Part shown: one piece after another, positions 17,326-44,983 of the stretch
Numbering within the stretch: the first letter of the stretch is position 1
Layout: each line of letters starts with the position of its first letter
Source of the DNA: a virus
Taxonomy: Duplodnaviria; Heunggongvirae; Uroviricota; Caudoviricetes
Length of the DNA stretch: 64,000 bases
Reading direction: 5' to 3' (one strand)
IMG/VR virus record: IMGVR_UViG_3300048058_000019
Translations under genes and position numbers: made by a program
The notes under the pieces: model-generated
What the model saw: the letters and a program-made list of their open reading frames with translations, nothing else
Told to the model about the DNA's origin: nothing
Database searches by the model: none

Positions 17326-17428
17326 GACTCTCAACTCAAAATCCCCGCCACAACCACCATAGTTGTGACGACGAGGGCAATCACCATCAAGATTCTTGCA
17401 TCCCATGGTCGCTCAGTTTGACACTTCA

Positions 17429-18628: not shown

Positions 18629-18831
18629 TCTTCCACCTTGTGCTTTTCACACACGAATTTGGGATGGTCGGCTAGCTTCTTGGGCTTAGTTGCCCATCCA
18701 CCGACCTCATCAGGATGGGGCTCGCTGTGATAGCGGCTTGTACATTCAGCAATTGCTATCTCACCACAAGTCTTCCCATTGAGGAGAGCTTGACCACAGT
18801 ACTTCCATCGTTCATAAGTCGACACATTCAC
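18625..18831 (-). CDS. hypothetical Cys/His-containing protein (68 aa)
   Basis: Minus-strand ORF. Confidence 0.35.
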   Translation of the reverse strand: MNVSTYERWKYCGQALLNGKTCGEIAIAECTSRYHSEPHPDEVGGWATKPKKLADHPKFVCEKHKVEE

Positions 18832-20659: not shown

Positions 20660-21898
20660 TTACAAGCTGATCAGGATCTTATCCCCGAAAGGAGGCTTGG
20701 CGTCCTCGGTGAGAAGCCACACAACCGGCGTCGGTGGAACCTCAGGAGGCCAACGTCCAACCTGCCCGTCAGTGAGAACCACAAGGATGTTGTTGAACAA
20801 GTGGTTTTCCTTGAGATAGGCGAACAGGTGAACAACATTTGTTCCACAACCACCCTTGGCCGGGATCTTTCTCCAGTCGCCCCGGTGATATCTCTTTGCG
20901 GGCATCTGGATCTTAGCGTCCCAAAGCACGAGGGAGATCTTGAAACGGTGGCTTGCAGCTTCCACTTCCGTGAAGAGTTGTTCGAGCATTTTGACGTTGC
21001 TGGCCACCGAACTGGAGACGTCGACCGCGAGGAGGAGCGGCACGGACGCGTGGTTGGAACGTCCAGCAAAGCCGAAGAGGTCAATGCGGCGGTTGCGCCG
21101 AGCGAAGGTCTTACGCTTGCCGCCCAGCTGACGACCGCAGAACTGACGGAACAAATACTTCCAGTTGACCTTCGGATCTTGAAGCTGCTCAATAGCATCT
21201 TTCAGGTGGCCTGGAGCCGAACCAGCTTTCTTGCTGGCCTGCTCAACCATGTCCTTGACGATCTGGCGGGTCTCTTCCTCACCGATTTCCGACTCTTCCC
21301 AGATGTCGTGATTGTCAACCGTCGTGCCCGAAATGACCTTCTGTCCAGGCTTCGGTTTCTTCTTGCCGCTGGCGAGATCACCACCCGGCATGTCGATGAA
21401 GATTTTCTTCTGGTTCTTGTCGAGCCAGTCGTAGACTTCCTCGTAGGTCGAGTTATTCTCGGGCGAGAGATCGCCCTCGGGGAAGTAAAGGGGCGGAGCT
21501 TCCGTCGTCTTGTTTCCGCCTTCATCGAAGACCGGAATCATCGGCAGGTTTTCGATGTTGGGCTTACTCTCGGGGCCATTCACGCACATATCCGCAGCCG
21601 TGTTGGCCATTTCGTGGTCTCGCGCACCATGACGAGTGATGTGCAGGCGAACGATATGCTCAATTTCGTGCTGAATTACCGCCATCAGAGCGTCAATCTC
21701 TCCAATGGCATCAACAAAAGGTCCTGACCATCGACACTCGACCCGGCCTCCGGCAATCATACGGACGCCCATGGTCCCAACCTTGTCGTCGCGCTTCCAC
21801 TCCATGAGGGATGCCATCGTGCCATACCAAACGTGCATGGTCACCAGACGGCATCGCGCCTTCATGATGAGGTCTTCAGCGCTGTCGTACATACCCAT
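20660..21898 (-). CDS. vWA-domain protein with N-terminal HExxH putative metallopeptidase domain (CoxE/DUF2201-like partner of a MoxR ATPase)
   Basis: HEIEHIVRLH (HExxH) sits in the N-terminal half; the C-terminal half has vWA-like features (ILVVLTDGQ). It lies immediately downstream of the AAA+ ATPase. Confidence 0.7.
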   Translation of the reverse strand: MGMYDSAEDLIMKARCRLVTMHVWYGTMASLMEWKRDDKVGTMGVRMIAGGRVECRWSGPFVDAIGEIDALMAVIQHEIEHIVRLHITRHGARDHEMANTAADMCVNGPESKPNIENLPMIPVFDEGGNKTTEAPPLYFPEGDLSPENNSTYEEVYDWLDKNQKKIFIDMPGGDLASGKKKPKPGQKVISGTTVDNHDIWEESEIGEEETRQIVKDMVEQASKKAGSAPGHLKDAIEQLQDPKVNWKYLFRQFCGRQLGGKRKTFARRNRRIDLFGFAGRSNHASVPLLLAVDVSSSVASNVKMLEQLFTEVEAASHRFKISLVLWDAKIQMPAKRYHRGDWRKIPAKGGCGTNVVHLFAYLKENHLFNNILVVLTDGQVGRWPPEVPPTPVVWLLTEDAKPPFGDKILISL

Positions 21899-21900
21899 TA

Positions 21901-22131
21901 CTAACTCTCCTCCACATGTCTGCGTAGTTTACGCTTAACTTGCTTACGCGTTGGTTTCGATCCTATCCAAAGGATCGTCGGGTCTTCATCCTCTAGCGGA
22001 GCTGGAGGTTTAACACCAGGATAGATCCTGCTCAGGTAGCCGAGTTTGGCGTGCTTAACCCTGCCCTTCTCGAGCAGATCGGCAACTTCGGTTCCCAACC
22101 CACAGGATCCTTCGAAGTAAAAAGCGAACAT
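21901..22131 (-). CDS. hypothetical protein (76 aa)
   Basis: Minus-strand ORF. Confidence 0.35.
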   Translation of the reverse strand: MFAFYFEGSCGLGTEVADLLEKGRVKHAKLGYLSRIYPGVKPPAPLEDEDPTILWIGSKPTRKQVKRKLRRHVEES

Positions 22132-22148
22132 CTCTCCTCCAATTGCTC

Positions 22149-22661
22149 TTAGTGACTGGCTCGTTGCAGAGCACGTTTAATCTCCTCAACGGAGATCTCG
22201 TGTGTCTTTTGAGCCAAGATTCGTTCAATGTTGGCAGTGTGATCTTGATCGGGGTCACCACAACTCTGGAGATGCTCAAGGAACTGATCTGTAAATCTGC
22301 GCATCCTCATCTTGATGTTAGCAAGAACCTTTTGAGCGATCTCGTAATTCCCCTCAAGAGCAGTTGCTATTTCCTTGAGATGAATTTCCTCCACGTATTC
22401 GTCGGCAGCACCTTGCGTTAAAATGATGTCGGGATCTCGATGAGCCTCAGGGTTATTCCAAAAGGCGTCCGCCATTTCGCGAACCAGTCGCGAGGAGGCT
22501 GTCTTGTGGTGAATGTTACTCACCACAGTTTCAGCGATGTCGTCAAAATCGTCCAGCATATTTGGTCTCCAGTGTGGTACATTATTTCTGCTCACCGGCA
22601 AGCCGGTGACGGGTAGCTCCGTGCTCTCCTCAGTGCGGAGTCCACAGTATCTACCCGCCAC
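22149..22661 (-). CDS. hypothetical protein (170 aa)
   Basis: Minus-strand ORF located between the AAA+ and vWA genes. Confidence 0.5.
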   Translation of the reverse strand: MAGRYCGLRTEESTELPVTGLPVSRNNVPHWRPNMLDDFDDIAETVVSNIHHKTASSRLVREMADAFWNNPEAHRDPDIILTQGAADEYVEEIHLKEIATALEGNYEIAQKVLANIKMRMRRFTDQFLEHLQSCGDPDQDHTANIERILAQKTHEISVEEIKRALQRASH

Positions 22662-22675
22662 CGGCTCATATTCGT

Positions 22676-24034
22676 TTAGCTCCCGTAAGAGACCTTCGAC
22701 ATGAGCTTCTGCAGCTCGGGGCGAGCGCTGATGGCAGCGATCCAGGAATTGGTCTTATCGGGCTTGTACCGAGCGGCCATCTTGGCGAGATGGACGTTGG
22801 AAAGCACCGCACCACCGAGGTTGACCGTTTCCTTCTCGACCAGAGTGCGGCCGAGCATGACCGCGAGGTCGCGCTCTGCGCGCTTGGCCACCAACTCCAT
22901 GAAGTCCAGCGTGTTGGTGATCAGCTTCTCCCGATCCTTACCCTTCACACCCTTGGTGTCCGCGAAGCGGTCCTTCGCGTGGGAGGCCACGCCCCAGACC
23001 AGACCGACCATCTGGTTCCGGTTGAAGCCCTTGAGCTTCGCGTCGATGGCCTTGAGACCCTTGTCCAGCACGTCACCCGGGGTGACTTCGACGCTGAACC
23101 GCTCGAACGCGTTGGCGAGATCGCGACCCACGATCCCGGCGAGGACTTCGCGGATTGCTTCCTTCGGATAGTTGCGGCGCTCGACCTCTTGAGCCACGCG
23201 GCCTACGAATTCCCAAGAGCGCGGGGACGACATGACAGTGAAACCGAGGTCACCGTCGATCTTGCCCATCAAGTTGTTCTTGTCGTAGGTCACGAACTGC
23301 AGGACCTTGTCGCCGACAGGACCCTTGAGCTTCTGAGTCATGTAATCCGACCAGTCGGCCACATAACCCTCGTCCACCGAGACGACCACGTGGCAGAACC
23401 TGTCGAGGAACGCCGGGTCGTTAAAGGTGTTGACGTTGTAACCGGTCTGGTAGTTTCCAGCGCAGGTCACACTCCAGCCCGAAGGCATGGTGTACCGACC
23501 GAGCTGACGGTCCAGAACCAGCTGGAAGCAGGCCTGAAGCACGTCGTCGTCGGCGCGGTTGAGCTCGTCCAGGAAGAGGATTCCTTCGTGGAGGATGATG
23601 ACGATTCCGTCATCCTTATCCGTCTTGGGCTGGTTCTTGTGACCATTCGGACAAACCGTGGGGATCTCCTTGGTGAGGGCATAACTGCCGTTCTCACCGA
23701 AGGTTCCGTGCCAACGGCCTCGAGGCCCGTTCTTCACAGGCGCGTCGGCGCATTCCAAACAGAGGAACTCTCCGTGCGGGAGATCCTCAGGCGGGCAGTA
23801 AATCGTGAGGCCGTTCTGTCGGTCGGGGAGACCGCGCAGATCGGACGATTCGATCTGACTGGCACGGAAATCCACAAACCCCCAAGGCCGCTTCGTGCCC
23901 GAATGCTTCGGGGCCTCTTGACACAGCTGCCTTACGAGGGAGCTCTTACCCAAGCCTCGGTGGCCCCACATGAACATGGCCACACCGGAATTGCGACAGA
24001 GCCGAGTCGCATGCTTGGTCATCGTAACGTTCAT
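22676..24034 (-). CDS. MoxR/AAA_5-like AAA+ ATPase with a Cys-rich insertion
   Basis: Walker A GHRGLGKSSLV; Walker B ILFLDELNRAD. About 90 aa between them contain CPPEDLPHGEFLCLECADAP...CPNGH. Confidence 0.75.
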   Translation of the reverse strand: MNVTMTKHATRLCRNSGVAMFMWGHRGLGKSSLVRQLCQEAPKHSGTKRPWGFVDFRASQIESSDLRGLPDRQNGLTIYCPPEDLPHGEFLCLECADAPVKNGPRGRWHGTFGENGSYALTKEIPTVCPNGHKNQPKTDKDDGIVIILHEGILFLDELNRADDDVLQACFQLVLDRQLGRYTMPSGWSVTCAGNYQTGYNVNTFNDPAFLDRFCHVVVSVDEGYVADWSDYMTQKLKGPVGDKVLQFVTYDKNNLMGKIDGDLGFTVMSSPRSWEFVGRVAQEVERRNYPKEAIREVLAGIVGRDLANAFERFSVEVTPGDVLDKGLKAIDAKLKGFNRNQMVGLVWGVASHAKDRFADTKGVKGKDREKLITNTLDFMELVAKRAERDLAVMLGRTLVEKETVNLGGAVLSNVHLAKMAARYKPDKTNSWIAAISARPELQKLMSKVSYGS

Positions 24035-24168
24035 CGGTCATTCTCCTCCAGAGAAAGATTCAAATACCTATCACGTCGCACCCATTCCCAAGCTCCAATG
24101 CGTGGGTCATATTCATATGAGAGCGAGCGATCAAACCATTTCCTCAAGAACGAAAAAAGCGCCAACAT
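24031..24168 (-). CDS. possible small leader ORF (MLALFSFLRKWFDRSLSYEYDPRIGAWEWVRRDRYLNLSLEENDR)
   Basis: Internal Met of track ORF 24031-24291; its stop overlaps the ATPase start codon. Speculative. Confidence 0.2.
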   Translation of the reverse strand: MLALFSFLRKWFDRSLSYEYDPRIGAWEWVRRDRYLNLSLEENDR

Positions 24169-24268
24169 CTTACCTCTCATTAAACCTCCATGAGACAGTC
24201 GCCACACGCCCCATCCCACCACGCGCCGCGAGGGCGGGCAATCATGGGTTGGCTGCGACGGCCAGATC

Positions 24269-25360
24269 TTACAATTTCGCCTTACAGGCACGTTGAACTT
24301 TCACACGCAGATATTCATCCTCTTTATCGACTTCAGTCAATTCTGAGCCTTTAAAGATATGAAGACCATCTCTGGTCGAGTACCGCTCCGGTTCAGTTTT
24401 GTACATGCTGAGATCGAATGGCCTCTTTCTCACTTTCTCCTGCAAGGCTGGTAGCTTCTGCCAGTTAACATAACCTTGGCCCCCATAGGGGTTAGCTTCC
24501 ACCGCTCCTTTGACTTTCGACCAGTCGATGATGTAATAATTCTTGACTTTTTTTACCTCATCATCACCAATGAGGACGTAATCACGAAGACCAGTTGGGT
24601 TCCTGTGACTCCACCCATAGGAAAAGACTAGAATTGGTTTGTAGCTTGGGTTGGCCAGAACCGCCGATTCAATCTTTTCCGACTGAGACACGAATCGATA
24701 GATCTCATCCCCCACATCCTCGAAGTAAATCATTGAATGCTTCGCATACTCATCGATACCACTAAGGTTGAAGGGACGTTTCTTGGCGCGGCCTAAGATG
24801 AGGGAGGAATGCTGCTTGAGGATGCCGAGAACTCGCGCGGCTTTATTCAGACTGCCTAACTCTCGCTTGAGAGAGTCCCAGGTCGGATTAGGTAGAAACT
24901 TGTCATCGAAGTAATACGGTACCGAGAGGCCGTCAAAACGAACCTTCACATACCTACCGCGTCGGTCCTTATGCACGGAGGGACCTACAGACAATTTCTC
25001 TGTCTTGTAGGTCTTGTCATCCTGGGTTAGTTCGATATACTCCGCATTCCCGCGAAGCCAGTGCAGGGTCTCGGTGAGAGAGAGATTGATCACCATCTCA
25101 TGAACAAGATGACCGTCCTGGGGTCTAAGATCCATTCCAATCTTGAGCGGACCAGATATGAGTTCAGGTCCCGAGTCTGCAATATAGACGCTATATTGGA
25201 AGTTGTAGAATGCATCGGAAATTGATTTCGACGCTTCGAAGTCATGAAGCGGCGTAGTAGCCCTTACGAGCACCGGCTTCGGATTCGAATCCTTGACCGG
25301 ATGGGGACCATATACCTTGAATAGACCCCGCTCACCTCGGAGGTTAGAGAATTGTTCCAT
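24269..25360 (-). CDS. hypothetical protein (363 aa)
   Basis: Long minus-strand ORF; no motif recognised. Confidence 0.55.
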   Translation of the reverse strand: MEQFSNLRGERGLFKVYGPHPVKDSNPKPVLVRATTPLHDFEASKSISDAFYNFQYSVYIADSGPELISGPLKIGMDLRPQDGHLVHEMVINLSLTETLHWLRGNAEYIELTQDDKTYKTEKLSVGPSVHKDRRGRYVKVRFDGLSVPYYFDDKFLPNPTWDSLKRELGSLNKAARVLGILKQHSSLILGRAKKRPFNLSGIDEYAKHSMIYFEDVGDEIYRFVSQSEKIESAVLANPSYKPILVFSYGWSHRNPTGLRDYVLIGDDEVKKVKNYYIIDWSKVKGAVEANPYGGQGYVNWQKLPALQEKVRKRPFDLSMYKTEPERYSTRDGLHIFKGSELTEVDKEDEYLRVKVQRACKAKL

Positions 25361-26034
25361 TAGATGATCCTATACTGCTTAAGGAAGTTGCGTACATCAC
25401 TGGACATCTTACCGGCAAACTCACGAGGAGTCTTGGCCTTGAACTTCTCATTGAGAACTGCCTGAACGGCGTTGTGGTTGCTGCCACCACCACCGCGAGT
25501 ACCGGTCAGATCGAAAATGACGTGGCAACAGTTATGTTGCAGATCATTCAAATGGTCGATAGACTCAATAATGGCCTTGTTGGACTTCGCCTTCTCAATG
25601 GCTAGGAAGGCTTCGCTGATCACAGCCCAAGGCTCGCCACCAAACGCGGACATTGACTTACCCTGCTTGGAGCGGAAAGCATCAGCTGCTCCCGCCATCT
25701 TGTCCTTGGGTTTATTATGTTCTTTGTGCTCGGACTTGATCAGCTCCATCATGTTGAAGCCGAGCCCCGTTCGCGACATCGAAGCAGCCTGAGCCTTGAT
25801 CTGCTCATCCATCTTGCCCTTCATGTCGCGAAGCATGGCTTCGATACTGGCACCGGCTACATCTAGACTCATGTAACCAGCTTCCTCTATGATGCGCTTC
25901 TTGAGCGTCTTAACGTAAGCCTGTTGGATTTCAGTCAGATAGAAACTGAAGAGATTCTTACCCTCCTCATCTAGGGTTTTCTCGTCAATGACGGAGAGGC
26001 CGTAGAAGTCGTATACATCACTTACTTTCAGCAT
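25360..26034 (-). CDS. hypothetical protein; paralogue of 17429-18196
   Basis: See 17429-18196. Start trimmed to MLKVSDVYDFYG, which aligns with the paralogue's MDISSKFKAVTPEDLYNFYG. Confidence 0.55.
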   Translation of the reverse strand: MLKVSDVYDFYGLSVIDEKTLDEEGKNLFSFYLTEIQQAYVKTLKKRIIEEAGYMSLDVAGASIEAMLRDMKGKMDEQIKAQAASMSRTGLGFNMMELIKSEHKEHNKPKDKMAGAADAFRSKQGKSMSAFGGEPWAVISEAFLAIEKAKSNKAIIESIDHLNDLQHNCCHVIFDLTGTRGGGGSNHNAVQAVLNEKFKAKTPREFAGKMSSDVRNFLKQYRII

Positions 26035-26275
26035 CTTTCTTCTTCCTTCCGAACAGGTCTTCACGGATTTCTTTGAGTCCCGCCAGCTTATCTCCAAGCT
26101 CTTGAGCTGATTTGAGTCCAGCCGCTACCTTTCGCCACCTTGCTCGCTCGCCCCGGTAGCGCTTAAGAAAAGCAACAGCTCGACTTAGAAGGAGGGTCTC
26201 GGCATTCTCCATGCCGTCTTTGAGGCCGATGAGGCCCTCAATGACCTCGTCTATTTCTTTTTCTTTCACGTTCAT
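26018..26275 (-). CDS. hypothetical small helical protein (85 aa)
   Basis: Minus-strand ORF. Confidence 0.35.
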   Translation of the reverse strand: MNVKEKEIDEVIEGLIGLKDGMENAETLLLSRAVAFLKRYRGERARWRKVAAGLKSAQELGDKLAGLKEIREDLFGRKKKDAESK

Positions 26276-26519
26276 GCTCCTCCATAGCGTCAGCCATTTT
26301 AGGTCCTGTAATTCCTAAGATCTCTAACCCCCAAATGGGCTCCATCTTACGAAACTTGGGGCTTGTCTTCTCAAGAAGAAGACGGTCGAGTTTCGCTTGA
26401 CCGCGACACTCTGCTTCCTTCCAACGATTCCCTAATCTAAGGAAAGGTTGGCGTCCTCGAGCCTCGAAATTCGCAGCATAACTGGGGGCCACGATCTTGA
26501 AATTAGGCTCCTGCATCAT
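26238..26519 (-). CDS. small protein of the N-F-K-I-x-A-P motif family (MMQEPNFKIVAPSYAANFE..., 93 aa)
   Basis: The motif sits at residues 6-12. Confidence 0.45.
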   Translation of the reverse strand: MMQEPNFKIVAPSYAANFEARGRQPFLRLGNRWKEAECRGQAKLDRLLLEKTSPKFRKMEPIWGLEILGITGPKMADAMEEHERERKRNRRGH

Positions 26520-27204
26520 CCAGCTTCTTGAAGATCCGATCTCTCAGATCTCGGGCAACTGCCGCTCGACGGACGTCGTGAGACTCGTCAGCGTCATATT
26601 CTCCATGCTTGTAAAGCCGGTTTAGGTTCCGACCGGAAAACGCCATACGGACTTTGCCCGCTTCCTTCTTGTCCATGATGTGGAAGATACCCTCGATGGC
26701 ACGTCCCGACATCTCAGCAAAATCCATGCGCACTTTCTCGTTCATCTCCCCGGGTTTGAAGACCTCTCCGTAGTGACGGAGAGCTTCACCCAGAACCTCG
26801 GACTCTTCTAGGTTCACGAAGAGGGAGACCAAGGAGTTAACAGCGGGCATTACGGGCTCCGCCCCAGGAATGATGATCTTAGGAGTCGAGGGGACCGCAG
26901 CCGGAGCCGCAGTTGGCACAGGAGCAGGGGCCACAGGCGGCGGCTTGACACCCATCCGCTCGGCCATCTCCTCGAAGGAGAAGATGTTCTTACCAGTTTT
27001 GGTCTGCCACTTCTCGTCGGCAGCCTTCGGGTCTTTCTCGTCGTAGCCCGGTTCATCCTTAGTAGAAGTCCGGATGACAACCTCGCGGCTACAATTACAG
27101 GTAATGTGCCGCTCGATCATCTTCTTTCCATTCTCTTCGATTTCCGCGCAGGGCCAATCGAAGATTCGGTGGTTGATACCACACGTGCAGAAGATCTTCA
27201 TCAC
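26503..27204 (-). CDS. hypothetical protein with N-terminal Cys cluster (233 aa)
   Basis: MMKIFCTCGINHRIFDWPC...CNCSREV at the N-terminus, then a Pro/Ala-rich linker. Confidence 0.5.
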   Translation of the reverse strand: MMKIFCTCGINHRIFDWPCAEIEENGKKMIERHITCNCSREVVIRTSTKDEPGYDEKDPKAADEKWQTKTGKNIFSFEEMAERMGVKPPPVAPAPVPTAAPAAVPSTPKIIIPGAEPVMPAVNSLVSLFVNLEESEVLGEALRHYGEVFKPGEMNEKVRMDFAEMSGRAIEGIFHIMDKKEAGKVRMAFSGRNLNRLYKHGEYDADESHDVRRAAVARDLRDRIFKKLDDAGA

Positions 27205-27713
27205 TCCTCCATATTGAGTCTAATTTGACTCACGTAGGTTAGAACAGCAGAATCCGCCCGACAATGATCCGGAATTTTACTCAGTAAGGTTTCAGTGTTT
27301 GAACGATAACCTTTTGTGAATTTCACGGGCTTAAGCTTGAAATCTCGCGTATTATCACATCGATCAGCGAGTTTAAGTAAGACGCCATCTCGCGATAGCC
27401 GAGCAAAACGCGCGAAGTATTCAGCCTCTTTTTCAGCCTTAGGGAGAGACTTAACCTTAGTCACTCCCATGACCAGCTCAGTCATGTCGCTCCCGAAGTA
27501 GAGTCGGATTGTACCGGAAGTAACATCGGTGTCTTCAATCACATCATGAAGTACACCTGCAGTCGCCAACTTAATATTGCCGGTACGAGCAAAGAGATCA
27601 TCCGCAACCCGTAAAGGGTGGAGGATATAAGGTTCGTCAACGAACTTGCGACGTTGTCCATCGTGGGCCTTGGTCGCAAGGAGGATTGCTCTATTGTAGT
27701 TCTGAAGCCACAT
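27201..27713 (-). CDS. RelA/SpoT-family HD-domain (p)ppGpp hydrolase (small alarmone hydrolase)
   Basis: KAHDGQRRKFVDEPYILHPLRVA and AGVLHDVIEDTDV match the SpoT/Mesh1 HD hydrolase motifs. Confidence 0.8.
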   Translation of the reverse strand: MWLQNYNRAILLATKAHDGQRRKFVDEPYILHPLRVADDLFARTGNIKLATAGVLHDVIEDTDVTSGTIRLYFGSDMTELVMGVTKVKSLPKAEKEAEYFARFARLSRDGVLLKLADRCDNTRDFKLKPVKFTKGYRSNTETLLSKIPDHCRADSAVLTYVSQIRLNMEE

Positions 27714-28239
27714 GTTTTTCTACCTTATTAAGAAGGGCTCGGATTTTCTTATGATCCTCATTGTGATAGGAGATCTTACGCTCCGTTGCCTCTATATTGT
27801 CCTTAATCATCCTAACCAACAATTCTTCGAGCTTCTCGCCCACCTTCTCGTGGTTATGTAAGGGGATAAAGATTTCGAGATGTCCCCTGCCAAACGTTAG
27901 ACCTCCCTTAAGGGCGTTGTGGCGGGCCGCATATATCTGATCTAGGTGACCAATAGTCACACAAATTCTTCGATGATCTTGATCATTGGAGAATAGCTCA
28001 TGTGTCAGAACTCGTGCGCCGATCTTATCGAGCCTGCGCTCACGCCAGACTTTCTGGATATAGTCAGCCACAACCCGTTTTTGTCCTTCCGAGTTGTAAT
28101 GTTTCGTACAGAGTAAGTCTCCCGAAAGCTTCTTCAAGCAACGACTATGATAGTGACCATCAGCACCGCACTTCTCACAGATGGCAAACCGGTTGTTATA
28201 GATTAGACCTTTACATTTATCGCAGAAAGTCTTAGTCAT
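27691..28239 (-). CDS. modular Cys-rich zinc-finger protein, family member D
   Basis: Trimmed to MTKTFCDKCKG..CEKCG..H..C..LC..H. VADYIQKVWRERRL aligns with the ADYAKKMWDDVGF domain of 4524-5153. Confidence 0.55.
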   Translation of the reverse strand: MTKTFCDKCKGLIYNNRFAICEKCGADGHYHSRCLKKLSGDLLCTKHYNSEGQKRVVADYIQKVWRERRLDKIGARVLTHELFSNDQDHRRICVTIGHLDQIYAARHNALKGGLTFGRGHLEIFIPLHNHEKVGEKLEELLVRMIKDNIEATERKISYHNEDHKKIRALLNKVEKHVASELQ

Positions 28240-28486
28240 CGCTCCATCTTCCACTCGCGTGCGGTTCTCCCTTACCATAACCACGGGGATCGAGACGGTT
28301 GATTTCCTTAAATTGGCCCTCATCCATGATCTCGATCTCGCCTGCCGTCTTGTGACCGTAAGCCATCCGTCCTTTTTTCATCGGGACGTCTCCGTCCGCG
28401 ATTACACATGGAACGCAGGTTCTCGCGTTAGGGAGGGCTTCCAGGCGCTCAGCGGAGATTAGCTTACCGCAACGTTCACAACTCAT
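28232..28486 (-). CDS. DksA/TraR-type C4 zinc-finger protein
   Basis: CERCGKLISAERLEALPNARTCVPC is C-x2-C-x17-C-x2-C with the conserved I..R..A.P.A residues of PF01258-type fingers. Confidence 0.6.
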   Translation of the reverse strand: MSCERCGKLISAERLEALPNARTCVPCVIADGDVPMKKGRMAYGHKTAGEIEIMDEGQFKEINRLDPRGYGKGEPHASGRWSDD

Positions 28487-28614
28487 TCATCCTCCTCTAA
28501 TTCTTCATATTCCTCTTCGTCTTCTTCAACTTCTTCGTCGTCGTACCAGCCAAATTGTTCTCGCCAATCATTTTGGAAGAGAGCAATTTTGAGTGCAATT
28601 CTTTTGAAGTTCAC
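28483..28614 (-). CDS. tiny acidic-tailed ORF with GTG start, NFK-motif family (VNFKRIALKIALFQNDWREQFGWYDDEEVEEDEEEYEELEEDE)
   Basis: GTG at 28614; its stop overlaps the ATG of 28232-28486 as ATGA. The N-terminal NFK(R)IA matches the family motif. Confidence 0.25.
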   Translation of the reverse strand: MNFKRIALKIALFQNDWREQFGWYDDEEVEEDEEEYEELEEDE

Positions 28615-28886
28615 GTTCTCTGTCGCTTTCCGTTGAGTGTGTACCACTGACCTTCGCTCCAAGCGCCTAGGATCTCTTCAATGACTGATTTCTTAGCAGA
28701 AAGAGTCACCCGATAAAGACTCTTACCAACTTTATCACATGTTAGGATCTTGAATTCGCCTCTGGCGAGGGCCACGCCTAGGTTAGGATCCTTGAGCATA
28801 TAACGCATCGCTTGTTTGCGTGCGGAGGGCGTGATTGCATCGTCAAGATCCGGCCAACCTCCATGTTGTCTATATGAGAGTCTCAT
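28611..28886 (-). CDS. hypothetical protein (MRLSYRQHGGW..., about 91 aa)
   Basis: Trimmed to the ATG at 28886 that overlaps the stop of the upstream tiny ORF. Confidence 0.4.
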   Translation of the reverse strand: MRLSYRQHGGWPDLDDAITPSARKQAMRYMLKDPNLGVALARGEFKILTCDKVGKSLYRVTLSAKKSVIEEILGAWSEGQWYTLNGKRQRT

Positions 28887-29002
28887 GGACGAATTCCTCC
28901 TGGAGGGGGATTCCAATAACTACTGCATTCATAACAGCAGTTACATTCAGGGTTCTCCTGGCAGAGATCCATATCGCTATGAGCGATGATTGTGAAGTTC
29001 AA
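28883..29002 (-). CDS. tiny Cys-rich ORF with TTG start, NFK/NFT-motif family (LNFTIIAHSDMDLCQENPECNCCYECSSYWNPPPGGIRP)
   Basis: TTG overlaps the upstream stop as TTGA; the N-terminus copies the MNFTIIAP of its upstream neighbour. Confidence 0.2.
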   Translation of the reverse strand: MNFTIIAHSDMDLCQENPECNCCYECSSYWNPPPGGIRP

Positions 29003-29148
29003 AATTCGTCATCCTCATTACACGATCTACAATCACAGATTACATCCGAGATAAAGTAGCCAGAAGGATTACAATCGATGCAATCGCATTGCTTTTCATG
29101 GGGGACTTTATCAAGCGCCTCTTCGGGAGCAATGATTGTGAAGTTCAT
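28999..29148 (-). CDS. tiny Cys-rich ORF, NFK/NFT-motif family (MNFTIIAPEEALDKVPHEKQCDCIDCNPSGYFISDVICDCRSCNEDDEF)
   Basis: 49 aa, so below the track threshold. ATGA overlap with the upstream ORF. Confidence 0.35.
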   Translation of the reverse strand: MNFTIIAPEEALDKVPHEKQCDCIDCNPSGYFISDVICDCRSCNEDDEF

Positions 29149-29312
29149 GATTCTCTAATACAGCCTTCACACTGGCAGCGGACGCTAGAAAGATCACCGC
29201 AGATTTCATAACCCTGCTCAGCTACCCAATGTTCACAGCGACCGCACTCCCATGCGGGAGTGCCCTGCTTCTCTGCCTTGAACATCTCGGACCCACAGTA
29301 CTTACAAAGCAT
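29145..29312 (-). CDS. tiny zinc-finger ORF (MLCKYCGSEMFKAEKQGTPAWECGRCEHWVAEQGYEICGDLSSVRCQCEGCIRES)
   Basis: 55 aa. TAATG junction with 29312-29719 and ATGA junction with 28999-29148. Confidence 0.35.
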   Translation of the reverse strand: MLCKYCGSEMFKAEKQGTPAWECGRCEHWVAEQGYEICGDLSSVRCQCEGCIRES

Positions 29313-29719
29313 TATTCGGCTCCCTTCTTCTCTTTCTTAAGATACTTCGACTTCATGTTCTTCGTGCGCTCAACAATCAGCGCCGCGATTCGATCAATGA
29401 GATCAGGAACAGCTAGAGGAATGACCTCAAATTCCTGATGCCCGTACCCGTACTTCCTTCCCCTCGCCTGGAACTTGAGTTTCTCTCCTTCCACATGGAC
29501 TTCGCTGATAAGAGAACTCATGGGAGAGGGCCACCGGAAAGATAATCTACTCCCTCTATAAGTGACATACCCTGTGCTGACCGCAACCGCAACCTCGTTT
29601 GGATCAATACCAGCCTTCTTAAAGGCTTCTAGGAAGGTCTCACTGAGAATCATCATCCCAGTAACAGAATACCATTTCTTCTGAACGTAGAAGTCACCAA
29701 CATCAACTGAGGATCTCAT
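29312..29719 (-). CDS. hypothetical protein; paralogue of 18828-19223
   Basis: See 18828-19223. Confidence 0.5.
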   Translation of the reverse strand: MRSSVDVGDFYVQKKWYSVTGMMILSETFLEAFKKAGIDPNEVAVAVSTGYVTYRGSRLSFRWPSPMSSLISEVHVEGEKLKFQARGRKYGYGHQEFEVIPLAVPDLIDRIAALIVERTKNMKSKYLKKEKKGAE

Positions 29720-30192
29720 TTAACACCCTTCGTCGCGGCCCACTTCCGTATCAGCTTTTGCGTTTTCTTCCGTTCTCTCTTTGCCTTATCGGTTTCAACT
29801 AGTTCCCGCAACTTTTTGTCATAGACATCTTTCTTCTTGAGACTCTTAACAAGCTTGGTGTCAGTCTCGAACAGCGTTCTTAAAAGACCAAGAAGGTCAG
29901 ATGTCGGTTCAGCAATGTTCATGTAATAAACCCATCCATCTTTATTCGTTGACAGGTCTTGCTTGCGCGAGAAGATGACCTCAACCTCATTTTGAACGAA
30001 CACGTGGATTGCAGGGATAAAGTATCCTCCCCGAATCTGGAGATGAGGTTGGATATAAGGTGTCGAACCGCCGTACAAGGACACCTTAAATCCCTCGTTA
30101 ATGAGCCACACCTTTAGTTGGCCTAGCGTGGCAACTTTCTCTTGATGGGTCATTTCGCAAACTGACGCTTGGCCAGCTCCTCCTTGTACCAC
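29716..30192 (-). CDS. hypothetical protein (158 aa)
   Basis: Minus-strand ORF with a 4-nt overlap with the next gene. Confidence 0.5.
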   Translation of the reverse strand: MVQGGAGQASVCEMTHQEKVATLGQLKVWLINEGFKVSLYGGSTPYIQPHLQIRGGYFIPAIHVFVQNEVEVIFSRKQDLSTNKDGWVYYMNIAEPTSDLLGLLRTLFETDTKLVKSLKKKDVYDKKLRELVETDKAKRERKKTQKLIRKWAATKGVK

Positions 30193-31121
30193 TCAGGAAG
30201 GCCAGCAGTCGCTCCACGCAAGATCTTGGGAAGCGCCCACTTTAGAAGCGCCTCAGCGATGGGCGAGTTGGGACCCTTCGCCTCTTCCTCAGTGAGATCC
30301 TTGTGGACTTCCTTGATAAGCTTGCCGATGTCCTTCGGAGCATTTTCAAGCTCACCACGTTCCTCGAGGTGCATTACTGCCTTGCTCCAGCGAGCAGGGG
30401 TTTGATACGACATGATGAGCTTCTGAAGGATATCACCCTGCTTGGGGTTGGATTCCTTCCACTCGACCCCGTGCTTCTCCTTGAACTCCTCGCTGACGAA
30501 CTTCCCCATCATGGCCTTGCCATCCGAACCAAAACGGTTGTAGTTCTTGACGACAACACCTTCGATCTTCTCTTCGCCTAGGACACTCATGGTCTCGTCC
30601 ACGAGCTTCCGGAAGACGTCGTAGTTATCGATCTTGCCACGGAAGAAACAAGGGACGCACTCGAGGCCGATCCGATCGGCTTCAGCCTTCTTCTCTTCGG
30701 GAGAGAGATACTGCTCGTACGAGGGGCTGATATCGAAGATGATCAGATGGTCTTTGGGGACCCGGCCGTAAGCCCGAGTGTGATGCTTGGGCTTCGACAG
30801 GTATTCTGCCCGGTAGGTCCAGCCCAGCTTGAGATTGGGTTGAAGCTTTAGGATGGTTTCTACCGCCTTGATGAAGAGCTTCTCAGGGGCAATCAGGTTG
30901 ATCTGGGCACCCTTCGAACGGGCACGCAGCTCGGGACCCTCACCAAAATCGAAGACACCAAAGCTGAATTGGGACCCGTCCACTTTCTCTTCGAGGATCA
31001 CTTCCTCCAGGAAAAGCTCTGTGATCGCATGGTGACCCAGAGCGTGGATCTTCGTGTATGAATGATACGACGTTGCGGTTACAGGCTTCTTTGCAACCAG
31101 GGGCTTCTCTTCAGGAACCAT
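30150..31121 (-). CDS. ATP-dependent polynucleotide ligase, RNA-ligase-like (nucleotidyltransferase domain, no OB domain)
   Basis: Motif I EEKVDGSQFSF (KxDG); motif III HLIIFDI; motif IV KIEGVVVKN; motif V MMGKFVSEEFK. Start trimmed to the ATG at 31121 (MVPEEKPLV), which has a GAGGGAAAG RBS. Confidence 0.6.
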   Translation of the reverse strand: MVPEEKPLVAKKPVTATSYHSYTKIHALGHHAITELFLEEVILEEKVDGSQFSFGVFDFGEGPELRARSKGAQINLIAPEKLFIKAVETILKLQPNLKLGWTYRAEYLSKPKHHTRAYGRVPKDHLIIFDISPSYEQYLSPEEKKAEADRIGLECVPCFFRGKIDNYDVFRKLVDETMSVLGEEKIEGVVVKNYNRFGSDGKAMMGKFVSEEFKEKHGVEWKESNPKQGDILQKLIMSYQTPARWSKAVMHLEERGELENAPKDIGKLIKEVHKDLTEEEAKGPNSPIAEALLKWALPKILRGATAGLPEWYKEELAKRQFAK

Positions 31122-31464
31122 TCTTTCCCTCACAATCTTTACAGCAGCACTTGATACATACGCATTCGCTACCACCACATGGAGTAGTGCAATGCTTATG
31201 ACTACAACCACATGTCTCGTAATCGGAGAAGGGAAGTATCGACGCTAACTGCTTCCTTTCTCGATCATAGACAACCTTGAGCATCTGCTTTTCATGCTCA
31301 ACCAGGAAGATGGAAACCCGGTGGGAGTCTTTATGGTAGAATCTCGCATCTCCCACACGGATCTTGTCCACGATACGACACTGGTCCTCCTCTCTGAGGA
31401 CCAGCCCAAATCGCTGGAAGGCACGCCGTTGAGCGTGCAACCGCTGAGATTTATCTTTCTTCAT
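31111..31464 (-). CDS. Cys-rich hypothetical protein (117 aa)
   Basis: C-terminus CGCSHKHCTTPCGGSECVCIKCCCKDCEGK. Confidence 0.45.
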   Translation of the reverse strand: MKKDKSQRLHAQRRAFQRFGLVLREEDQCRIVDKIRVGDARFYHKDSHRVSIFLVEHEKQMLKVVYDRERKQLASILPFSDYETCGCSHKHCTTPCGGSECVCIKCCCKDCEGKNGS

Positions 31465-31465
31465 G

Positions 31466-31561
31466 TTAATCTCCTACCCCGCCGAAGCCGAGACTGAGGT
31501 ACCACCGATAGTAAGTTATGTTACGTCTCCTCGCCGGTGGCGCTATAATCTTGAAATTCAT
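31466..31561 (-). CDS. tiny ORF of the NFK-motif family (MNFKIIAPPARRRNITYYRWYLSLGFGGVGD, 31 aa)
   Basis: TGATG junction with the upstream gene and 2-nt spacing to the downstream ATG; begins MNFKIIAP. Confidence 0.3.
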   Translation of the reverse strand: MNFKIIAPPARRRNITYYRWYLSLGFGGVGD

Positions 31562-31926
31562 CAAGCCCATGCAAACCTGTGGAAGGATTCAATCTCCTTT
31601 GAGCGGACACATTCATCGCAGATTGGTTTAATAGGTCCATCTGTGTCCTGAAAGACTCCAGTTGCTGTGGCAGCGCAGCGAGAGCACTCCCACTCTTCGT
31701 CCTCTTCCTTCTCCTGAGGGATGAAGCGCTCATCAATCTCGCCCATTGTTTTTTGGATCGCTTTGAACCAGAGAGTCTCGTCGTGACCCGAGCATCCAAA
31801 TTCGCTCAAGATCGTCTTGAGATGATCAAACATCTCAAATGCTTTATCGTGGGTCTTGCAACGCTGAATGATGGGGAAAGGCATCCCCTGCTCGGGCTCT
31901 AAGACTTTACAAGCACACGTAGACAT
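31561..31926 (-). CDS. Cys-containing hypothetical protein (121 aa)
   Basis: Preferred over the alternative-frame ORF 31521-31799, which is low complexity. Confidence 0.4.
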   Translation of the reverse strand: MSTCACKVLEPEQGMPFPIIQRCKTHDKAFEMFDHLKTILSEFGCSGHDETLWFKAIQKTMGEIDERFIPQEKEEDEEWECSRCAATATGVFQDTDGPIKPICDECVRSKEIESFHRFAWA

Positions 31927-32176
31927 ATTGCATCCTCCTAATCATGTCAGCGAGATCTTCAAAGAAGTTGGGGTCGGCCATGTTTAATATACGCGGACGA
32001 CCTATCCCCATGACTGTGATCTTCGGTAGCTCATCTAGAATGAGCCTACCATGAGCCGAATTATCGATGAGAGATTCGATATAAAAGACGTCTCCAGCGT
32101 CGTTGATCTTGATCGGGGTCCCGCGATATTCCTCTTTCAGCCATTCAACAAGAGCTGTCTCAAAGTCGAGTTTCAT
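31907..32176 (-). CDS. hypothetical protein, DPxFF-motif family member (89 aa)
   Basis: C-terminus NMADPNFFEDLADMIRRMQYV. Confidence 0.5.
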   Translation of the reverse strand: MKLDFETALVEWLKEEYRGTPIKINDAGDVFYIESLIDNSAHGRLILDELPKITVMGIGRPRILNMADPNFFEDLADMIRRMQYVYVCL

Positions 32177-32376
32177 CGTCTCATCCAGGTTCTACCTGTC
32201 CAAACGACCCTAGACCACGCATTACAGTGGACCACATGAGGAATACCCTCTTTGTTGACGTGTCTAAAAAACTCAAGTGCTTCCGGGAATTTAGACGGAG
32301 GAGTCGTGTGATCTTTATAGAGAAAGACCTTTCCCAACAAATAGCCCGTGTAAGGGACCAAAATCTTGAAGTTCAT
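32173..32376 (-). CDS. small protein of the NFK-motif family (MNFKILVPYTGYLL..., 67 aa)
   Basis: Begins MNFKILVP. Confidence 0.45.
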   Translation of the reverse strand: MNFKILVPYTGYLLGKVFLYKDHTTPPSKFPEALEFFRHVNKEGIPHVVHCNAWSRVVWTGRTWMRR

Positions 32377-33203: not shown

Positions 33204-33331
33204 TTCTTCTCCTTGAACTTCTGGATGATCTCAACCATCAAGCAGATGTAAAGGGTTAAGGCTGTCCCTTCCACACCGAAGGTCAGGAGACCTAATCCGA
33301 TAAGGAATAAAAAGAGAAGGAAATTTCTCAT
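33200..33331 (-). CDS. tiny hydrophobic peptide (MRNFLLFLFLIGLGLLTFGVEGTALTLYICLMVEIIQKFKEKK, 43 aa)
   Basis: ATGA overlaps on both sides; one predicted TM helix. Confidence 0.35.
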   Translation of the reverse strand: MRNFLLFLFLIGLGLLTFGVEGTALTLYICLMVEIIQKFKEKK

Positions 33332-33528
33332 TTTACCTCAGGTAAAACCTCAGGACCCCAATCTAGATCATAGTCTAGATTCCAATGCCAATCGGAATAA
33401 TGACCTTGGGGCCGTTGGCACCGGATAGGCTTATTGTCTGGAGTCAATGCAGACCAACAAGCATTTTCACAAAGAACCTCTTTATAGGCAGCATTTGGGG
33501 CGAAGATCTTAAATTTTTCTGAACTCAT
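33328..33528 (-). CDS. small Cys/Trp-rich protein with an N-proximal FKIFAP motif (MSSEKFKIFAPNAAYKE...)
   Basis: Variant of the NFKIxAP motif at residues 6-11. Confidence 0.4.
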   Translation of the reverse strand: MSSEKFKIFAPNAAYKEVLCENACWSALTPDNKPIRCQRPQGHYSDWHWNLDYDLDWGPEVLPEVK

Positions 33529-33839
33529 TCACCCGCCGCTTCTACCGTAGCAGACATAGAACCTGCACAACGTGGGATCCTTGGGTCTCGCCCGTAAGCG
33601 TGGACCTTATCTCTCTTGAATTCAGCATATTCAAGAGCGCCCGAATATACAATCACCTTTCCGGTCGCATCGACCTCAACTGCCATCCTGAATGCCTTCT
33701 CCTTGGAGTGACCGAAGACCACTCCAAGCATTTCGATCACATACTCGTATGTGTGATCATCATCATTCCACAGGATAACGTTGTAAGGAGGCTGTGTCTT
33801 GACATCCTCCTTGACTTCATCTTTTACTTCTGTCGACAT
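33525..33839 (-). CDS. clpS: ClpS-like N-degron adaptor (copy 1)
   Basis: PPYNVILWNDDDHTYEYVIEMLGVVFGHSKEKAFRMAVEVDATGKVIVYSGALEYAEFKRDKV aligns with the E. coli ClpS core [52 protein letters not shown]. Confidence 0.8.
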   Translation of the reverse strand: MSTEVKDEVKEDVKTQPPYNVILWNDDDHTYEYVIEMLGVVFGHSKEKAFRMAVEVDATGKVIVYSGALEYAEFKRDKVHAYGRDPRIPRCAGSMSATVEAAGE

Positions 33840-34066
33840 TACTTCTTCTCCCGTGTGGTACGTTCGGTGAATTGAGACATCTTATCGAGACTTCCGAGGT
33901 CATCAAATTTTGTGTCAAGTAATTTGACATCATTAATCTCGGCTGCACCAAATTCTCGCAGATAGTCGAGGAAATCTTCCTCACGCTCATCACCGAGAGG
34001 TACGGCATAAGTGATGCAATAAACAAGTGTCTTGCCGAGTTTCTCACAGGCCTTTTTGCGGTCCAT
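33839..34066 (-). CDS. hypothetical protein (75 aa)
   Basis: Minus-strand ORF with 1-nt junctions; preferred over the alternative-frame ORF 33817-34047. Confidence 0.4.
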   Translation of the reverse strand: MDRKKACEKLGKTLVYCITYAVPLGDEREEDFLDYLREFGAAEINDVKLLDTKFDDLGSLDKMSQFTERTTREKK

Positions 34067-34266
34067 CAGAGTCCTTTCATCTCTTCAAGGATGTCTTTCC
34101 AGTCTTTTCCAGTTCGAGTAGCTATATCCTTAATACGGAGGAGACCTTCTTTAAGAGAACAATCATAACAAAGAATATGACTTATTGGATGCAATCGTGG
34201 TTTCGCCTTGCAAGTCAAGCAAGGCACTGCAGCTATCGGCGCAGTCATTTTGAAGTTCCCGAGCAT
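34066..34266 (-). CDS. small Cys-containing protein with an N-proximal NFKMTAP motif (MLGNFKMTAPIAAVPCLTCK...)
   Basis: Motif variant at residues 4-10. Confidence 0.4.
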   Translation of the reverse strand: MLGNFKMTAPIAAVPCLTCKAKPRLHPISHILCYDCSLKEGLLRIKDIATRTGKDWKDILEEMKGL

Positions 34267-34269
34267 CTA

Positions 34270-34446
34270 CCTCACCAATCCCACGTACACGAGATCCCTC
34301 GACTTCGACTTCTTCGATCCATCCACGCTCGTCTCCGTCACGGTGACTTGACGGCCCTTTCGGGTCTTCATCTTCCTCCGGACGCCGTGCTTCGCGTCGG
34401 TCCTGGAGTAGAAACCGTGAACCATCTTACTGTTGCTGCGCCGCAT
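34270..34446 (-). CDS. possible small highly basic protein (MRRSNSKMVHGFYSRTDAKHGVRRKMKTRKGRQV..., 58 aa)
   Basis: Fills the gap on the coding strand. The competing plus-strand ORF 34027-34518 is antisense to everything else nearby. Confidence 0.3.
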
Positions 34447-34717
34447 CGTTTTCCTCCTTGTAAGCTTCCGTATCCAACTGGTTTAAGCGAGCATTATTTC
34501 TCTCTACCCAGAGATTGAATTCTGGTCTTTCTTGAAGGGTAGTGAGAATCTCCATTGTCTTGGGCTCATCAAGCTGCCCTGGCAGAACATAGAGCTTCCA
34601 GATCCTTTTAAAACGTTTGAACCCCTCCAGATCTCTCACCGCATCATGCTCATATGCGGCGAGTATCTTCATCCGATCGATGCCGAGGATCTTGAAGTTG
34701 CTCCTACTCTCCATTCT
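34427..34717 (-). CDS. small protein of the NFK-motif family (MESRSNFKILGIDRMKILAAYEHDAVRDLEGF...)
   Basis: Trimmed to the internal Met. It is a paralogue of 34856-35089 (IDRMRELERFEHDAVKDIAWF). Confidence 0.4.
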   Translation of the reverse strand, partial: RMESRSNFKILGIDRMKILAAYEHDAVRDLEGFKRFKRIWKLYVLPGQLDEPKTMEILTTLQERPEFNLWVERNNARLNQLDTEAYKEENDAAQQQ

Positions 34718-34928
34718 TCTCCGCCTTGAGCTCCGAGTCGGCCCTGCTCCATCCATCAATTTCGGTTCCATCCGCTTTATCGGTGGCCTCTTGTTCGGAG
34801 TCGGCCTCGACCTCGATTGAGTAATAGACGCTATAACTCACAGTCCATTTGGGCTTCACAAGCTCTTCTCTTTCTTCTGATCTTCTCGAGAGAGATCTAC
34901 AACGGTAAATCCATTCCGGCCCCACCAC
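34704..34928 (-). CDS. hypothetical acidic protein (74 aa)
   Basis: Minus-strand ORF. Confidence 0.35.
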   Translation of the reverse strand: MVGPEWIYRCRSLSRRSEEREELVKPKWTVSYSVYYSIEVEADSEQEATDKADGTEIDGWSRADSELKAEKNGE

Positions 34929-35089
34929 GAGCCGTAACGAAGACCGTAAACTTCGTGCATCTTCTTTCCGTCACAATGTGCGTTAAAAAACTTTTTGAGC
35001 CTTTGAAACCAAGCAATATCCTTAACTGCATCGTGTTCAAATCGTTCCAACTCCCTCATTCGATCGATGCCGACTATCTTGAAATTCAT
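34856..35089 (-). CDS. small protein of the NFK-motif family (MNFKIVGIDRMRELERFEHDAV..., 77 aa)
   Basis: Begins MNFKIVGID; paralogue of 34427-34717. Confidence 0.45.
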   Translation of the reverse strand: MNFKIVGIDRMRELERFEHDAVKDIAWFQRLKKFFNAHCDGKKMHEVYGLRYGSWWGRNGFTVVDLSREDQKKEKSL

Positions 35090-35510: not shown

Positions 35511-35810
35511 TTAATCCTCCGGCTCAATAGAGAAGGTCAGAGGGAATTTATTCATTCGGGCTATCGCGTGAGCCTTCTCTACATGGAATTCAGCTCGTTC
35601 GAGAGGTTCCACCACAACCAGGGCTACTTGCTTCGAGTGAGCCTCGAGCATGATCCGCGTAGATTCCGCGAGATCCTTATTGAAGACTTTGGATAGAACC
35701 AGAACTACGAAATCCATCGGAGTCTTCGGATCATCGTGGATGAGTACCCGATACATCTTGATGTATCCGGTACGCGTTTTAGTCTCCTGAATGGTATCCG
35801 TATCAGACAC
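35511..35810 (-). CDS. clpS: ClpS-like N-degron adaptor (copy 2)
   Basis: YRVLIHDDPKTPMDFVVLVLSKVFNKDLAESTRIMLEAHSKQVALVVVEPLERAEFHVEKAHAIAR matches the ClpS core. The two copies are only about 30% identical to each other. Confidence 0.75.
   Translation of the reverse strand: MSDTDTIQETKTRTGYIKMYRVLIHDDPKTPMDFVVLVLSKVFNKDLAESTRIMLEAHSKQVALVVVEPLERAEFHVEKAHAIARMNKFPLTFSIEPED

Positions 35811-44906: not shown

Positions 44907-44983
<77 letters not shown>

Follow-up and report, generated by a model that had tools for sequence, protein, structure and literature searches.

Introduction

Phages, and large ones especially, are known to carry stand-alone small alarmone hydrolases (SAHs) able to neutralise the growth arrest imposed by RelA/SpoT homologues (RSHs) and the toxicity of toxic small alarmone synthetases (toxSAS). 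SAHs of the Mesh1 type hydrolyse (p)ppGpp and (p)ppApp and remove the 3′-pyrophosphate that toxSAS toxins put on the CCA end of tRNA (bioRxiv 10.1101/2021.04.30.441581). The SAHs of Salmonella phages SSU5 (PaSpo) and PVP-SE1 (PbcSpo) neutralise every toxSAS toxin tested (PMC7229694), and a counter-defence role has been proposed for them (PMC7229694; PMC9712102). Here we analyse two genes on a 64,000-nucleotide stretch of phage DNA (Caudoviricetes, IMG/VR record IMGVR_UViG_3300048058_000019), hereafter the window: an SAH gene (27201–27713, minus strand), whose product we call the HD protein, and a gene for a zinc-finger (ZnF) protein (28232–28486, minus strand). A preliminary description of the window had reported both open reading frames (ORFs); we recovered them at these positions, encoding 170 and 84 amino acids (aa).

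The ZnF protein invites comparison with TraR of the F plasmid and its phage homologues. Their activity on RNA polymerase (RNAP) depends on an N-terminal helix whose DxxDxA motif reaches the active site, on R48, which contacts the β′ rim helices, on R49, which contacts β′Si3, and on a C-terminal helix that contacts βSi1 (PMC9239242). Homologues that bear the finger but have neither DxxDxA nor the C-terminal helix do not behave as DksA does (PMC9239242). The preliminary description had proposed that the two proteins form a stringent-response takeover pair, the hydrolase erasing the alarmone and the ZnF protein occupying the RNAP secondary channel. We find a hydrolase of a familiar kind, a DksA/TraR finger in an unfamiliar protein, and a neighbourhood that recurs without being obligate.

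The HD Protein Has the Catalytic Residues of an Alarmone Hydrolase

The ORF at 27201–27713 matched Pfam HD_4 (PF13328) over residues 9–129 with an E-value of 6.6e-15 (55.6 bits against a cut-off of 27.2). Pfam HD also matched, as did phrog_990, a "metal-dependent phosphohydrolase" family (3.4e-28). The TIGR00691 spoT_relA model aligned over profile positions 1–123 of 687 only, which is its N-terminal hydrolase part. The 170-aa protein thus consists of one RelA/SpoT-type HD domain, without synthetase or regulatory domains. Its relatives in the PDB, at 1e-17 to 1e-5, are Listeria Lmo0812, the hydrolase domains of Rel proteins, human and fly Mesh1, and bacterial SAHs. The segments EPYILHPLRVA and LHDVIEDT, in which the preliminary description had recognised a SpoT/Mesh1 signature, are both present.

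We mapped the functional residues with HMMER alignments to human Mesh1 (3nr1) and RelSeq (1vj7), and with a MAFFT alignment that included six phage homologues. The four Mn ligands align with those of both structures as H32, H56, D57 and D117 and are kept in all seven phage sequences, so the hydrolase assignment survives the comparison that could have overturned it, loss of a ligand. The corresponding Mesh1 residues are, in its native numbering, H35, H61, D62 and D122. The catalytic dyad E60-D61, the asparagine N121 of the (A)D-x3-N motif, and R22-K23, which aligns with the base-contacting Arg-Lys of RelSeq and Mesh1, are likewise conserved in the window and in the six related phage loci. In the base pocket, the RRK and N-x-R-D motifs match Mesh1. 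The two characterised phage SAHs, Mesh1 and the Rel domains resemble the HD protein in each of these respects: a single HD_4 domain of about 170–200 aa without a synthetase, the same Mn ligands, ED dyad, Arg-Lys motif and Asn. The phage SAHs, like the HD protein, are stand-alone genes.

The specificity of Aph1 for (p)ppApp has been traced to an Asp (D24) in place of the guanine-stacking Arg (R43 of TtRel), together with R119 (PMC10083569). The HD protein has R22-K23 at this site and not an Asp, and Aph1 (7smg) was a weak match (2.7e-8). Because it shares the Mn ligands, the ED dyad, R22-K23 and N-x-R-D with Mesh1, the HD protein looks like a Mesh1-type hydrolase and, judged by its sequence, is probably promiscuous. 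We conclude that it is very probably a catalytically competent 3′-pyrophosphohydrolase of the SAH class. Mn2+ held by H32, H56, D57 and D117 would act with the E60-D61 dyad to remove the 3′-pyrophosphate; (p)ppGpp and (p)ppApp would be the most likely substrates and 3′-pyrophosphorylated tRNA a possible one. Such hydrolysis would cancel an RSH-based growth arrest of the host or toxSAS-type abortive infection, as with the SSU5 and PVP-SE1 enzymes. We think it likely that countering host RSH-based arrest or defence is the biological role of the protein, whether by way of alarmone or of tRNA substrates.

A tblastn search gave relatives of the HD protein in 417 phage records of GenBank, many from jumbo phages; their usual annotation is phosphohydrolase or ppGpp hydrolase. 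None of these GenBank homologues is more than 38% identical to it, and its nearest homologues, at 45–48% identity, are in other metagenomic phages. The hydrolase is a further member of the known phage SAHs, ordinary for a large phage, and adds an example to the picture outlined above.

A DksA/TraR Finger at the Extreme N-Terminus of the ZnF Protein

The finger of the ZnF protein has the form C3-x2-C6-x17-C24-x2-C27, and I10, R14, A17, P19 and A21 stand at the I..R..A.P.A spacing that the preliminary description had pointed out. Pfam zf-dskA_traR (PF01258) matched residues 2–27 only, with an E-value of 6.4e-8 (32.9 bits against a cut-off of 24.9). A profile built from 91 family sequences retrieved YbiI (2kgo) as its best PDB match at 6.4e-9, followed by TraR (1.4e-8) and DksA (7.9e-6). 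In Foldseek searches the predicted finger superposed on DksA, TraR and DksA2 at 0.6–1.0 Å, and every match ended at about 30–40 residues. DksA itself (7khi_M) superposed on the model at 0.9 Å over 30 columns with 43% identity; the segment ERLEALP of the ZnF protein is closest to RRLEARP of DksA. The NCBIfam models for DksA, TraR and YteA scored far below their cut-offs and aligned with the finger region only. These matches favour a true DksA/TraR-type finger over a generic zinc ribbon, and we accept the former.

The remainder of a DksA/TraR protein is missing. An in-frame TGA (28489–28487) directly precedes the ZnF ATG, which has a strong Shine-Dalgarno sequence, GAGGAGG, 4 nt upstream, and all 16 close homologues (79–88 aa) start with M-x-C. 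Because of this stop codon, the ZnF protein cannot have a DxxDxA-bearing helix or coiled coil at its N-terminus, and no DxxDxA motif was found anywhere in its 84 aa. R14 aligns with TraR R48, the β′ rim-helix contact, and is invariant in the 91 family sequences; its DksA counterpart is R125. The position of TraR R49 is occupied by L15. Thus, of the TraR determinants the ZnF protein keeps the R48 equivalent only.

Like TraR and lambda Orf73, the ZnF protein has the C4 finger spacing and the I..R..A.P signature, a length of about 70–85 aa, and a gene carried by a mobile element. In TraR, however, the finger spans residues 37–61 and follows the DxxDxA helix, whereas in the ZnF protein it begins at residue 3 with nothing before it, and the TraR C-terminal helix gives way to a β-hairpin and helix without a structural match. 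In contrast to DksA, the protein has no coiled coil, DxxDxA tip, ppGpp-contacting residues or C-terminal helix. R. sphaeroides RSP0166, S. meliloti SMc00049 and E. coli YbiI are likewise classed by the finger alone and have neither DxxDxA nor the C-terminal helix; the first two do not work in the manner of DksA (PMC9239242). Yet about 40–80 residues precede the finger in these proteins, whereas the ZnF family has none there and carries its extra domain on the C-terminal side. The absence of the channel-inserting helix argues against RNAP regulation in the style of DksA or TraR, and in all likelihood the ZnF protein does not act like either. The secondary-channel binding that the preliminary description had suggested by analogy with these proteins thus lacks its anatomical basis.

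Residues 32–70 are conserved in their own right, with GDVP, G39, K46-T47 (in HKTAG) and D66-P-R-G-Y70. An AlphaFold2 model computed from the 91-sequence alignment had an overall confidence score (pLDDT) of 83.8, with 85–96 over residues 1–60, and was confident for residues 1–65. It predicts a β-hairpin (38–43 and 49–54) and a helix (56–65); the C-terminal tail would be disordered. Beyond the finger, we found no structural neighbour of the model among solved structures, and nothing in TraR or DksA matches this part. The ZnF protein is therefore a known finger in a new architecture, whose C-terminal domain has no known structural relative.

An exhaustive profile search gave a family of 558 representative clusters at E ≤ 1e-3, most of them with proteins of 65–90 aa that are unnamed or automatically labelled "DksA". 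Of 149 family representatives, 117 have the start of the finger at residue 12 or earlier. Its N-terminal position, which the preliminary description had called unusual, is therefore real and is the norm of the protein's own family. A search of bacterial and archaeal genomes, one per species, gave no member of the close family, and two different queries found no cultured member among GenBank phages; the only GenBank phage matches were the uncultured huge phages LR756501, LR756503 and LR756511 (595–735 kb). The N-terminal finger is the rule in this undescribed, almost exclusively uncultured-phage family, and the DksA/TraR mechanism cannot be transferred to it.

Some family members are longer. 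A subset of 130–190 aa (P0064, P0079, P0088, P0089, P0091, P0092, P0094, P0096 and others) has an additional C-terminal ARCHPxRP...G.C.EC...WY..R, probably a second zinc-binding module, and another subset ends in F(S/F)S.QK....R.A.K(F/Y)(D/E)L(R/K)(A/S)W(Q/K/R)(P/S). In a sister contig, L078, the ZnF gene looks truncated because it is called as 43- and 49-aa genes; we rejected a truncation, since the DNA is identical to that of the source contig and the gene call alone differs.

The ZnF and HD Genes Are Recurrent, Non-Obligate Neighbours

We assembled a set of 77 loci with a gene for a ZnF relative, searched them with the HD_4 profile and dereplicated them at 80% ZnF identity. In 26 lineages the sequence continued for 6 kb or more on the downstream side of ZnF; the window brings the number to 27. 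HD_4 was found downstream of the ZnF gene and on the same strand in 6/26 lineages, at distances of 1.2–5.1 kb, and thus in 7/27 with the window (0.5 kb). The reverse order, HD_4 upstream of the ZnF gene, occurred in 0/27. The seven include the 735-kb megaphage LR756501, with a ZnF protein only 36% identical to that of the window. In the other 20 of the 27 lineages, HD_4 was absent within reach. Conversely, the 417 SAH-bearing cultured-phage records gave no match to the ZnF family, and when neighbouring genes were clustered across 30 lineages no partner of the ZnF family appeared in more than nine; the most frequent neighbour families were unannotated small proteins and T4-like housekeeping genes.

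Identity of the ZnF protein co-varies with that of the HD protein from locus to locus, and synteny extends to the flanking genes. Two ORFs of the window, of 233 and 245 aa, are matched by homologues on the downstream side of HD_4 in L003, one of the four loci (L001–L004) that form a close clade with the window. The window and L001–L004 all have, upstream of ZnF, a ligase-like gene for about 200 aa, which in L001–L004 is 1–2 kb away (phmmer 1e-16 to 2e-21). Because identities co-vary and the flanks are syntenic, an old, loosely conserved block fits these data. We conclude that the pairing is a loose synteny, recurrent and non-obligate.

A Chain of Overlapping Genes in an Uncultured Huge Phage

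The distance of 0.5 kb given in the preliminary description holds, at 518 bp (27714–28231), but the two genes are not adjacent: the gap is filled by a 182-aa ORF (27691–28239, minus strand), which shares 8 nt with the end of the ZnF gene and 23 nt with the beginning of the HD gene. This ORF has a Cys/His-rich N-terminus, and its sole family signal is a sub-threshold match to C1_1 (E 0.036). It was rejected as a conserved third component, as no related locus has a homologue. Overlaps of 4 nt are found at the outer ends as well. Upstream, the stop codon of a 59-aa ORF (28483–28662, minus strand) overlaps the ZnF start (ATGA); this ORF, which has the acidic tail DDEEVEEDEEEYEELEEDE, had no family match, and the related loci lack a homologue. 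On the same two grounds we rejected the idea of a split DksA in which it would supply the missing acidic helix. Downstream, the start of the 233-aa ORF (26503–27204, minus strand) overlaps the HD stop. A family profile scan assigned it to no family; its homologue in L003 (9403–10056) is 35% identical over 237 aa and lies downstream of HD_4.

The chain of overlapping ORFs from ZnF to HD is translationally coupled, and the same-strand block that holds the two genes is probably co-transcribed. A scan of 24000–32000 for promoters and terminators gave counts at chance level, which says nothing for or against separate transcription units, and no signal above chance lay between the HD and ZnF genes. 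PADLOC defence-system models matched none of the eight proteins encoded from 20660 to 28486, that is, from a DUF2201 protein to the ZnF gene.

The window holds about 157 ORFs, mostly small and nearly all on the minus strand, with a coverage of 97%. A protein 100% identical to its HD protein (P0017) is encoded on a JGI metagenome contig of 384,188 bp and also on several shorter ones, related contigs carry genes of the T4 rIIA/rIIB type, and nucleotides 26000–30000 of the window had no nucleotide-level match among GenBank phages. For these reasons we take the window to be part of a huge phage that is uncultured and a relative of the T4 group.

RNA-Repair Genes near the Hydrolase in the Closest Relatives

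In L001 and L002 the gene order is ligase-like gene, ZnF, polynucleotide kinase-phosphatase (PNK; AAA_33 and PNK3P domains), NT5C, HD_4 and T4-type RNA ligase 1 (Rnl1). In L002 (6001–7240) the end of the ZnF gene and the start of the PNK gene share 8 nt, and in L001 (6001–7561) the ZnF gene is immediately upstream of the PNK gene. In L003 and L004 an AAA_33 kinase gene directly follows HD_4. Its homologue in the window, which is related to the PNK kinase domain, is at 11477–11992 (minus strand).

The window has its own tRNA and RNA genes, scattered over its length and all on the minus strand. An RNA ligase (30150–31211; RNA_ligase PF09414 1e-12, phrog_548 1.3e-23) lies 2.4 kb upstream of the hydrolase. 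The small ligase-like protein (37288–37914, 208 aa) has a nucleotidyl-transferase-like KYDGW motif and a sub-threshold match to DNA_ligase_A_M (E 2.3e-5, 24.6 bits against a cut-off of 26.2). Further members are a SpoU-type methylase (12289–12828), a CCA-adding enzyme with PolyA_pol and HD domains (41131–42510) and a tRNA-Met(CAT) gene (44907–44983).

RNA-repair neighbours were seen in the close clade only, that is, in the window and L001–L004; with the queries used, none was detected in L043, L054 or L077. In cultured phages, the SAH gene of Dickeya phage JA29 lies amid hypothetical genes with no RNA-repair neighbours. That of Sinorhizobium phage phiM12 lies largely amid hypothetical genes, with a sole AAA_33 fragment 3 kb away.

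Discussion

We consider it probable that the HD and ZnF genes are two auxiliary genes in a tightly packed block of a huge T4-related phage, and that inherited synteny has kept them near each other. The finger may serve the ZnF protein as a docking module, for the β′ rim helices through R14 or, equally, for a different partner; docking on RNAP in particular seems unlikely to us. Several observations weigh against this account of independent neighbours. Recurrence in 7/27 lineages, in a fixed order and as far afield as a distant megaphage, exceeds what random placement in genomes of 100–700 kb would give and could reflect functional coupling. The invariance of R14 would fit retained binding to the rim helices, and would also fit a purely structural role in the finger. 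TraR, moreover, uses insertions of the proteobacterial RNAP that may not be present in the RNAP of the host, which bears on how far the comparison with TraR can be carried.

In a coordinated stringent-response takeover, the SAH would erase (p)ppGpp while the ZnF protein caps the β′ rim helices and excludes DksA and Gre factors without inserting into the channel. The true DksA/TraR-type finger, the invariant R14 aligned to TraR R48 (PMC9239242) and the recurring order of ZnF then HD_4 all speak for it. Lambda Orf73 and similar phage homologues of TraR do reprogram transcription in the host (PMC9239242), and PMC6024815 contains the statement that host DksA lowers transcription during T4 infection, which would give a phage a motive for an anti-DksA factor. 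The anatomy of the ZnF protein pulls the other way, since it has neither the N-terminal helix nor DxxDxA, an unrelated β-hairpin domain replaces the TraR C-terminal helix, and finger homologues without these features are not DksA-like in function (PMC9239242). R14 does not prove RNAP binding either, because R-L-E-A-x-P is a general signature of PF01258. The distributions of the two proteins also part company: HD_4 is out of reach in 20/27 ZnF lineages, SAHs occur in 417 cultured-phage records as against three records, all from uncultured huge phages, for the ZnF family, and a non-conserved gene separates the two genes here. The takeover pair is an attractive hypothesis that this anatomy supports weakly; because the ZnF protein has the finger without the parts by which DksA and TraR act on RNAP, a two-part system is not established, and we regard it as improbable. 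That the two proteins cooperate mechanistically in any way is similarly doubtful. A variant would make the finger-first family a new class of phage RNAP factor, in which the finger docks on the rim helices through R14, the hairpin/helix domain with HKTAG and DPRGY caps the channel and excludes DksA and Gre factors, and, in the lineages with an SAH gene downstream, the SAH removes the ligand as the cofactor is evicted. We rate this variant as very unlikely.

Because SAHs can de-pyrophosphorylate tRNA, a toolkit for tRNA repair against toxSAS is a serious rival to the erasure of ppGpp. The hydrolase would act on the pyrophosphorylated tRNA CCA ends left by toxSAS of the CapRel, FaRel2 or PhRel type, alongside phage ligases, PNK and the CCA-adding enzyme, and the ZnF protein would be an accessory, for example a docking factor for RNA or an enzyme. 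We know of no RNA-binding function of DksA/TraR fingers. MESH1 and ATfaRel restore aminoacylation of pyrophosphorylated tRNA, an activity that the authors liken to T4 Pnk (bioRxiv 10.1101/2021.04.30.441581), and phage SAHs neutralise CapRel, PhRel, PhRel2, FaRel and FaRel2 (PMC7229694). The gene order of L001 and L002 with PNK and Rnl1, the ZnF–PNK overlap in L002, the AAA_33 kinase directly after HD_4 in L003 and L004, and the window's RNA ligase, ligase-like gene, CCA-adding enzyme, SpoU methylase and tRNA-Met point in the same direction. These neighbours are limited to the close clade, however, with none detected in L043, L054 and L077, and the SAH genes of JA29 and phiM12 keep other company; proximity inside a densely packed region of auxiliary genes is in any case weak evidence. 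We judge such a cassette unlikely, though it deserves to be taken seriously. A metabolic hydrolase, for instance an NADPH 2′-phosphatase like human MESH1, next to an unrelated small regulator of phage genes, would agree with the Mesh1-like base pocket (RRK motif, N-x-R-D) and with passages of PMC9765508 and bioRxiv 10.1101/2021.04.30.441581 that report MESH1 as an NADPH phosphatase. Neither sequence nor context points specifically to NADPH metabolism, and the phage SAHs that have been tested experimentally counter alarmone and toxSAS toxicity (PMC7229694), so we consider this highly improbable.

The less ordinary result is the ZnF family: a large, unnamed family that keeps the DksA/TraR finger alone, at the extreme N-terminus, joined to a conserved new domain. 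If the finger still docks on RNAP, it would open a new phage route to interference with the secondary channel; if it does not, the "DksA" label that such proteins receive automatically is misleading. The ZnF-then-SAH order beside RNA-repair genes in the closest relatives poses the question of whether the target of the SAH is ppGpp or pyrophosphorylated tRNA.

Other Features of the Window

The peptide motif (M)NFKI(V/L)(A/G)P stands at or near the start of at least ten otherwise unrelated small ORFs, all on the minus strand (210–350, 17182–17406, 26238–26519, 28999–29148, ~31460–31560, 32173–32376, 33328–33528, 34066–34266, 34427–34771 and 34856–35089). A degenerate DNA pattern of the motif was observed 6 times against 0.1 expected. 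Codons differ between the copies, and the motif is therefore conserved as a peptide; it may serve as a common N-terminal tag for targeting, processing or degradation. Amid this cluster lie two homologues of ClpS, the N-end-rule adaptor, 1.7 kb apart on the minus strand (33525–33839 and 35511–35810; Pfam ClpS 5.9e-20 and 2e-22). The pair is an unusual cargo for a phage.

The remaining features are also on the minus strand. A MoxR/AAA-type ATPase (22676–24034; phrog_1297, 5.8e-48) lies near a DUF2201 metallopeptidase-like and VWA-like protein (20660–21898), a two-gene association that recurs in phages. Two pairs of paralogues, 25360–26097 with 17429–18196 (32% identity) and 29312–29719 with 18828–19223 (37% identity), keep the same relative order about 8–10 kb apart, which suggests an old segmental duplication. 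The window also encodes a WGR-domain protein (14532–15119; 7.3e-10) and a 432-aa protein with a DFP domain resembling the C-terminal part of CoaBC (7576–8874; 3.2e-9).

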